Assembly (NCBI GenBank): GCA_963662285.2
Contig: CAXXMV010000002.1
Span: 1,312,001-1,376,000 of the forward strand
Direction of reading: 5' to 3'
Source: a bacterium
GTDB lineage: Bacteria; Hinthialibacterota; Hinthialibacteria; Hinthialibacterales; Hinthialibacteraceae
DNA length: 64,000 nucleotides
The notes under the pieces were generated by a model. That model searched no databases. It was not told where the DNA came from and saw only the letters and a list, made by a program, of their open reading frames with translations. Every line of letters begins with the position of its first letter. Position 1 is the stretch's first letter. Shown here piece after piece: positions 59,926 to 60,008 of this stretch. A program made the position numbers and the translations under genes.

Positions 59926-60008
59926 TCCAGGGGGTTGGGTTCGAACCAACGAAGGCTTGCGCCAGCGGGTTTACAGCCCGCCCCCTTTAGCCACTCGGGC
60001 ACCCCTGG
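59926..60008 (-). tRNA. tRNA-Tyr (GUA) with long variable arm and C1:G72 pair; CCA not encoded
   Basis: CCAGGGG acceptor pairs with CCCCTGG followed by A73. D-arm CCCGAGTGGCTAAAGGG, anticodon arm GCGGG-CTGTAAA-CCCGC, V-arm GGC-GCAA-GCC, T-arm GTTGG-TTCGAAC-CCAAC. Confidence 0.97.

Follow-up and report, generated by a model that had tools for sequence, protein, structure and literature searches.

A bacterial class II tRNA-Tyr with an archaeal-type acceptor end next to an archaeal-type tyrosyl-tRNA synthetase in a family of Hinthialibacterota

Tyrosine identity separates bacterial from archaeal/eukaryal translation, a textbook barrier with G1:C72, a variable arm (V-arm) and an S4 domain in the synthetase on one side versus C1:G72 and a short variable loop on the other, and the orthogonal pairs in widest use for genetic code expansion build on it. 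A tRNA-Tyr gene near the end of a 64,000-nucleotide (nt) stretch of a Hinthialibacterota genome (contig CAXXMV010000002.1, positions 1,312,001 to 1,376,000; hereafter the window) carries features of both sides: its body is that of a bacterial class II tRNA, its acceptor end is archaeal, and the next gene on the same strand encodes a tyrosyl-tRNA synthetase (TyrRS) of archaeal type. How does a bacterium come to have such a gene, and is it the one that serves tyrosine? We consider it very probable that this is the working and sole tRNA-Tyr of a bacterium outside the Candidate Phyla Radiation (CPR), a bacterial tRNA body retuned to an acquired archaeal-type TyrRS. The features on which the argument turns are the following; A1 is an alignment of the 18 tRNA-Tyr genes (17 genera) of the host's own family, here called f1.

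59926..60008, minus strand: tRNA-Tyr(GUA), 83 nt, class II, with C1:G72, C2:G71, A3:U70 and A73 (ARAGORN, Rfam, sequence)
59972..59974, minus strand: anticodon GTA (ARAGORN and sequence; invariant in A1)
59951..59964, minus strand: variable region TGGCGCAAGCCTTC, 14 nt, a GGC/GCC stem with a GCAA loop, a bacterial V-arm (sequence)
59894..59925, minus strand: T-rich 32-nt spacer from the tRNA-Tyr to the TyrRS start codon; no terminator-like site called on this strand
58751..59893, minus strand: archaeal-type TyrRS, 380 aa, with HLGT (HIGH) and KMSKS motifs (NF006330, PF00579)

The tRNA-Tyr gene and the adjoining enzyme

Within the 64-kb window, ARAGORN's single tRNA call is tRNA-Tyr(gta) at 59925..60009 (minus strand), and the only Rfam match in the same 64 kb is to the tRNA family RF00005 at 59926..60008 (minus strand), which covers model positions 1-71 of 71 with 53.5 bits and an E value of 1.1e-08 (gathering score 29). 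The ARAGORN gene ends one base further out on each side than the Rfam match, the T at position -1 being able to pair with A73. Read on the minus strand, the acceptor stem is CCAGGGG / CCCCTGG, followed by A73, and the 3' CCA is not encoded in the gene. Positions 8-9 are TG and the D arm is CCC-GAGTGGCTAAA-GGG, with a D stem of 3 bp; the anticodon arm is GCGGG-CTGTAAA-CCCGC and the T arm GTTGG-TTCGAAC-CCAAC.

The long hairpin variable arm and the 3-bp D stem are the marks of a bacterial class II tRNA, and the 14-nt hairpin of the variable region is at odds with an archaeal class I body, which has a short variable loop. At the top of the acceptor stem the situation is reversed: the bacterial tyrosine identity pair G1:C72 is absent and C1:G72 stands in its place. 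The archaeal/eukaryal tRNA-Tyr identity set, as tabulated in the accessible part of PMC9976931, is complete in this gene and invariant in A1: C1:G72, A73, and the anticodon bases G34, U35 and A36.

The TyrRS scores 404.7 bits against NF006330 (PRK08560), for which the NCBIfam cut-off is 220; the general tyrS model TIGR00234 gives 107.7 bits, below its cut-off of 113.8, and aligns to the N-terminal half only. Pfam assigns a single family, PF00579, to residues 32-351 (the class Ic catalytic family); no S4 domain is found in this enzyme by Pfam, and it has no S4-like C-terminal domain. Its best match in the PDB is 2cyc_A (3.5e-127), followed by 7fg6, 2cya and 1j1u, all of them chains of archaeal-type TyrRSs, and the bacterial enzyme 1h3e matches at only 3.9e-4. 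2cyc is the Pyrococcus horikoshii enzyme, one of the archaeal TyrRSs of roughly 375 aa. The nearest named protein (87% identity) is from 'Candidatus Hinthialibacter sp.', phylum Hinthialibacterota, and the next relatives, 51-61% identical, come from DPANN (Woese-, Pace-, Nano-, Micr- and Aenigmatarchaeota), Asgard archaea and Thermococci.

The residues expected to contact the first base pair are retained. In alignment A2, which holds 18 sequences (nine TyrRS of family f1 and nine archaeal homologues), R148, D189, Q190, R191 and K192 are invariant, and R148, R191 and K192 correspond by phmmer alignment coordinates (1j1u_A: query 134-200 versus chain 118-183) to R132, R174 and K175 of Methanocaldococcus jannaschii (M. 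jannaschii). In the M. jannaschii complex, Arg174 reads C1, with Arg132 acting via water, and Lys175 reads G72; archaeal and eukaryal TyrRSs read C1/G72 by conserved residues (both from the accessible part of PMC1934993). A basic C-terminal tail ending in VKLR (window 58751-58780) is present in all nine family TyrRSs of A2 and extends 3 residues beyond the archaeal homologues.

A first description of this locus, made from the letters alone (the sequence-only reading), had listed the acceptor stem, the D arm, the 14-nt variable region and its GGC-GCAA-GCC hairpin, all of which are present, and had supposed a cognate enzyme without an S4 domain; the archaeal type of the TyrRS (NF006330 at 404.7 bits) and its Pfam content of PF00579 only bear this out.

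Distribution of the tyrosine pair in the genome and the phylum

The host genome (G000; 7.29 Mb in 8 contigs, GC about 0.44) contains the window within a contig of 1.85 Mb. ARAGORN finds 44 tRNAs in it, the only tRNA-Tyr being that at 59926..60008 (minus strand); PF00579 and TIGR00234 each match one locus only, that of the window TyrRS, and no TyrRS other than this archaeal-type enzyme is found in the genome. The three tRNA-Pro genes also have C1:G72 and A73, but with G2:C71, and the initiator tRNA likewise starts with C1. One further ARAGORN call, an 86-nt 'tRNA-?(ca)' (Trp/Leu, two-base anticodon; L169, G000:C6:52554-52639), is likely a false positive because it has no Rfam family match at E <= 0.1.

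The wider sample comprises 35 species-level genomes of the phylum (Hinthialibacterota/OLB16): 20 of family f1 (G000 and 19 others, in 18 genera) and 15 of families f2-f6. OLB16 was formerly placed in Omnitrophota, according to the accessible part of PMC9324843. The two synthetase types are distributed as follows.

Family f1: NF006330 over cut-off in 20/20 genomes; TIGR00234 (bacterial tyrS) over cut-off in 0/20
Families f2-f6: NF006330 over cut-off in 0/15 genomes; TIGR00234 over cut-off in 14/15

The lone tyrS miss outside f1 is G034, which is 68% complete, and the f1 genomes without tyrS over cut-off include ones that are 96-99% complete. Among 14 control genomes, NF006330 exceeds its cut-off in the 4 archaea only.

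The tRNA follows the enzyme. A covariance model, R1, was built from the tRNA-Tyr copies of family f1 and used to search the 41 nearest genomes; it recovers tRNA-Tyr in 18/20 f1 genomes, the two misses (G015 and G017) having their TyrRS at a contig end, and in 18/21 genomes outside f1 (none in G026, G035 and G036). Alignment with the tRNA-Tyr of related genomes, which the sequence-only reading had proposed as a check, returns C1:G72, C2:G71, A3:U70 and A73 in every one of the 18 f1 copies; their acceptor ends read CCAGGG(G/A), one of them having A7:U66 instead of G7:C66. All 18 tRNA-Tyr genes recovered outside f1 start GG and have G1:C72. Across the phylum, the acceptor end of tRNA-Tyr thus matches the type of the synthetase. 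In family f2, which belongs to the same order as f1, the acceptor stem is GGAGGGG/CCCCTCC, so that the f1 stem differs from it only by the inversion of pairs 1:72 and 2:71; changes at these top pairs are what the sequence-only reading had envisaged.

The window TyrRS is 72-87% identical to the other f1 enzymes, and the f1 enzymes form one clade with a Shimodaira-Hasegawa-like approximate likelihood ratio test (SH-aLRT) value of 98 in an 88-row tree, obtained by a quick search and rooted at the midpoint only, with no named distant outgroup. In the 18 f1 loci that have both genes, the tRNA-Tyr and the TyrRS share a strand without exception, with the tRNA-Tyr 8-210 nt upstream. This linkage and the single TyrRS clade are compatible with a single ancient acquisition and vertical inheritance thereafter.

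In the window, the two genes stand head to tail, 32 nt apart, and are probably expressed as a unit. The surroundings contain the following features.

60034..60039, minus strand: TATAAT hexamer, a possible -10 box (weak), 26-31 nt upstream of C1
58114..58722, minus strand: hisH-like glutamine amidotransferase, downstream of the TyrRS (Pfam GATase)
60086-61684, minus strand: strongly hydrophobic membrane protein of 532 aa, between fmt and the tRNA, with no Pfam family
61681-62622: methionyl-tRNA formyltransferase (fmt)

Similar -10-like boxes occur 11-31 nt upstream of tRNA-Tyr in only 9 of the 18 f1 loci, and a promoter/terminator consensus scan called nothing on the minus strand near the tRNA-Tyr, its counts being at shuffle level. 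The hisH gene is directly downstream of the TyrRS in 15/19 of the relatives' loci. The open reading frame (ORF) of 532 aa is kept in position only in the closest relative (L006; 51% identity, 414 aa). An extracytoplasmic function (ECF) sigma factor gene is also among the bacterial genes that flank the locus.

Three further observations concern the tRNA itself. First, base -1 (window 60009) is T in 18/18 f1 genes versus 9/19 outgroup genes, a possible link to how RNase P processes a substrate starting with C1. Second, the pair 31:39 beside the anticodon loop (A1 columns 33 and 41) is G:C in 17/18 f1 genes and A:U in 16/18 outgroup tRNA-Tyr genes. Third, the tRNA-Tyr genes of family f5 encode the 3' CCA in 7/7 cases (L051-L055, L061 and L067); those of f1, f2, f3 and f6 do not.

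Descent of the tRNA body, retention of the V-arm and competing accounts

The tRNA body (positions 8-65) has a mean identity of 80-82% to the in-phylum tRNA-Tyr genes with G1:C72, the maximum to an in-phylum outgroup being 94% (G005 versus G033 of family f5). The f1 genes share U8-G9 and the 14-nt V region with f3 and f5, and acceptor positions 3-7 with f2. Bacterial descent of the gene, which the sequence-only reading had inferred along with a bacterial class II body, is well supported by these comparisons; that it derives from a gene resident in the lineage is the likelier case but stops short of proof, since four bacteria of other phyla also reach about 80% identity. Its description of the tRNA as 'chimeric' is apt insofar as the identity set combines with a bacterial body, and does not extend to recombination, of which there is no sign.

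The V-arm is maintained. In A1 the 23 cloverleaf pairs form in 414/414 cells and 9 pairs have changes on both sides; none of 500 shuffles reaches any observed measure, and the signal disappears when the 3' partners are shifted. The hairpin of the V-arm (helix 4) is paired in 54/54 cells, with changes on both sides at 2 of its 3 pairs, pair types GC, UA, AU, UG and CG, and a loop of 4-5 nt whose sequence varies freely. The complete pairing and the compensatory changes indicate an arm that is under selection and not decaying, so that the earlier suggestion of a vestigial V-arm fails in the sense of decay across these 18 genomes. In bacterial TyrRSs, an S4-like C-terminal domain binds the V-arm (Tsunoda et al. 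2007, accessible part of PMC1934993); since the window TyrRS has no S4 domain, this published bacterial mode of V-arm recognition cannot apply to it.

Based on these observations, we propose that an ancestor of f1 acquired an archaeal-type TyrRS, which came without an S4 domain for the variable arm, and that the bacterial tyrS was then lost. The tRNA-Tyr would have kept its bacterial class II body, and its top pairs would have become C1:G72 and C2:G71, making it a substrate of the new enzyme. The imported TyrRS would read C1:G72, A73 and the anticodon, and would tolerate the V-arm. Two published results are in line with such a path: (i) bacterial and archaeal/eukaryal pairs fail to cross-react on account of the first base pair (accessible part of PMC1934993), and (ii) C1:G72 and A73 placed in scaffolds far from the standard cloverleaf yield substrates of archaeal TyrRS in Escherichia coli (E. 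coli) (accessible part of PMC7590224). The V-arm would not be needed for contact with an S4 domain, yet would be kept by selection, the likeliest reason being that the class II fold, with its 3-bp D stem and tertiary core, requires it. The scaffolds that received C1:G72 and A73 in E. coli are reportedly of the long-V-arm type. The second inverted pair, C2:G71, may serve to separate tyrosine from proline acceptor ends, an idea only. A broader version, in which the V-arm has a role independent of S4 (in the class II fold, towards other tRNA-handling enzymes, or in a new TyrRS contact, for example with the VKLR tail) and C2:G71 was selected in the bacterial host as a mark of distinction from tRNA-Pro, is put forward tentatively and is rather doubtful as a whole.

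Several points weigh against the proposed history. The body identity to four bacteria of other phyla is 80%, which is non-discriminating with respect to native descent. None of the proteins encoded near the tRNA in the window turns up within 1.5 kb of the tRNA-Tyr at 12 outgroup loci, and the ORFs lying up to 8 kb from the tRNA-Tyr of G020, G021 and G029 map to scattered sites in G000, none of them inside the window; with no shared gene order, the insertion history is not readable from synteny. The direction of the TyrRS transfer rests on the distribution, the tree being unrooted apart from its midpoint. The equivalences with M. jannaschii residues derive from alignment coordinates and not from a residue-by-residue comparison. 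In the f1 genome G008 there is a further tRNA-Tyr, this one with G1:C72, which belongs to a Thr-Tyr-Gly cluster (L069, G008:C410:1-400). Finally, the layout with the tRNA upstream of the TyrRS is also found in other bacterial carriers, so that the pair may have come as a cassette instead of being retuned in place.

The last point leads to the competing account that survives best, namely that the hybrid tRNA-Tyr and the TyrRS arrived together from another bacterium, after which the native pair was lost, with the same function as outcome. A C1:G72 tRNA-Tyr lies directly upstream of an archaeal-type TyrRS in seven bacteria-labelled loci (L119, L120, L121, L127, L132, L138 and L146), and two small genomes (G047 and G048) carry class II hybrids with C1:G72; moreover, the f1 tRNA-Tyr occupies a different position from that of the outgroups, and its similarity to other phyla about equals that to the in-phylum outgroups. 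The only donor-like hybrid compared, L132, is however the least similar of all (mean 72.5%, maximum 76.5%), as opposed to the maximum in f5, and the shared details of body and acceptor stem listed above tie f1 to f2, f3 and f5. Nor does the f1 TyrRS group with the CPR carriers in the tree; its sole neighbour there, L119 (long branch, internal stop, unpublished genome), has a class I tRNA. We therefore regard joint import as unlikely, and retuning of a resident tRNA as the better account.

A far less probable alternative is that the pair is auxiliary or orthogonal, used for instance in stress or for antibiotic-resistant charging, beside a canonical bacterial pair located elsewhere. The assembly is 92.5% complete and has no detectable tryptophanyl-tRNA synthetase (TrpRS): PF00579 and TIGR00233 match the TyrRS locus only, and tblastn with the TrpRS-like ORFs of G007 and G005 against the genome gives only a weak cross-match to TyrRS (E 8.7e-04). 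TrpRS is present in the f1 relatives, an assembly gap is the likely cause, and essential genes can thus be absent from this assembly. Against an auxiliary role, tyrS is over cut-off in none of the 20 f1 genomes, near-complete ones included, and the C1:G72 gene is the only one in 17 of the 18 with a recovered tRNA-Tyr. The exception is G008, which counts in favour of a second pair, but there the extra copy sits on a 4.1-kb contig with a GC of 0.65, versus 0.52 at the G008 TyrRS locus, and is not accompanied by tyrS; it is probably a bin contaminant. That it is a relic of the transition is unlikely, given the short contig of odd GC, the absence of the Thr-Tyr-Gly cluster from the in-phylum outgroup loci, and the missing tyrS.

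An artefact, be it an archaeal fragment put into the wrong bin or assembly or an acceptor end misread in sequencing, is suggested by the metagenomic origin of the genomes, by the possibility that archaeal-type TyrRS contigs are mis-binned and by several matches on short contigs, but is refuted by the contig context (a 1.85-Mb contig, among the bacterial genes fmt, ECF sigma factor and hisH) and by the recurrence of arrangement and acceptor end in 18 independently assembled genomes, and is further opposed by the bacterial class II body and by an independently assembled contig from run X1 (probably the source sample) that spans 59700-60200 with 0 differences. Run X2 is probably the source sample too, and the remaining assembled pieces that align to the tRNA-Tyr are class II tRNAs of other organisms. 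No RNA run was found to contain the locus.

Relation to known tyrosine systems and significance

CPR phyla are small-genome organisms, and the host of the window, a member of Hinthialibacterota with a 7.3-Mb genome, is not one of them. Within the CPR, bacteria whose TyrRS is of archaea/eukarya type without the S4-like domain and whose tRNA-Tyr has C1-G72 have been described (Mukai, Reynolds, Crnkovic, Soll 2017, Life 7:8, PMC5370408), many of these hybrid tRNA-Tyr species retaining the V-arm, taken by the authors as a sign of bacterial tRNA-Tyr ancestry. The locus studied here agrees with those cases in its bacterial host, its archaeal-type TyrRS without S4, C1-G72 and the kept V-arm. It differs in that the published hosts are Parcubacteria, Microgenomates, Dojkabacteria and Katanobacteria (PMC5370408), whereas this is a non-CPR phylum with a host genome of 7.3 Mb (genomes of 4-8 Mb), and in that the trait is fixed in 20/20 f1 genomes and found in 0/15 other genomes of the phylum. 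The adjacency of tRNA and TyrRS and the covariation of the V-arm are documented here and are not described for TyrRS in the main text of PMC5370408. The kind of system is thus already published for CPR; the novelty lies in the lineage and not in the mechanism.

Compared with the canonical bacterial pair (accessible part of PMC1934993), the tRNA has the same class II body, 3-bp D stem, long hairpin variable arm, A73 and GUA, but pairs 1:72 and 2:71 are inverted, and its partner is not TyrS and has no S4 domain. With the canonical archaeal pair (e.g. M. jannaschii, 1J1U) it has C1:G72, C2:G71 and A73 in common, the equivalents of R132, R174 and K175 being conserved in an enzyme 51-61% identical to those of DPANN, Asgard archaea and Thermococci; it departs from that pair in the 14-nt V-arm, where the archaeal tRNA has a short variable loop, in the bacterial host, and in the C-terminus of the f1 TyrRS, which is longer by the 3 residues of the VKLR end. 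Iraha et al. in 2010 reportedly replaced the TyrRS-tRNA-Tyr pair of E. coli by an archaeal pair, which likewise gave a bacterium living with an archaeal tyrosine pair alone. In that laboratory replacement the archaeal tRNA was said to be imported as well, whereas family f1 has a bacterial tRNA body and a replacement that is natural and probably ancient.

A literature search, mostly of open-access articles and without supplements, found no report of archaeal tyrosine identity in Hinthialibacterota/OLB16 or in other non-CPR bacteria, PMC5370408 being the one paper it returned on such an identity in any bacterium, and the main text of the phylum description (PMC9324843) contains 0 occurrences of 'tRNA' or 'tyrosyl'. 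Archaeal-type TyrRSs also occur in metagenome-assembled genomes (MAGs) labelled Anaerolineae/Aggregatilineales, Dehalococcoidia/Chloroflexi, Dormibacteria, Planctomycetota and several CPR groups, the non-CPR loci being L112, L113, L120, L123, L127, L148, L149 and L119 (G041-G045, G049 and G050). Bacterial tyrS is over cut-off in 0/5 of the non-CPR carrier MAGs searched (G041-G045). The tRNA-Tyr genes found in G041-G045, G049 and G050 are of class I, with a short variable loop, C1:G72 and C2:G71, and often stand directly before the TyrRS gene, on its upstream side. The genome G045 is unpublished, so that what is said of it rests on that record, and mis-binning of these MAGs is possible; a switch to archaeal tyrosine identity may be more widespread outside the CPR than published.

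The published natural crossings of the tyrosine barrier are those of the CPR, and here the crossing is fixed in a whole family of large-genome bacteria (20 genomes, 18 genera). Family f1 and the other families of the phylum, which still have the bacterial system, form a clean comparative set in which one can ask how many tRNA changes are needed, apparently two base-pair flips in this case, why the V-arm persists after its reader domain is gone, and how an imported TyrRS avoids tRNA-Pro. The pair would also represent a natural class II tRNA scaffold accepted by an archaeal-type TyrRS. If the tentative reading of the V-arm and C2:G71 is true, family f1 would be a natural, long-running instance of cross-domain transfer of tRNA identity in a bacterium that is free-living and has a large genome.

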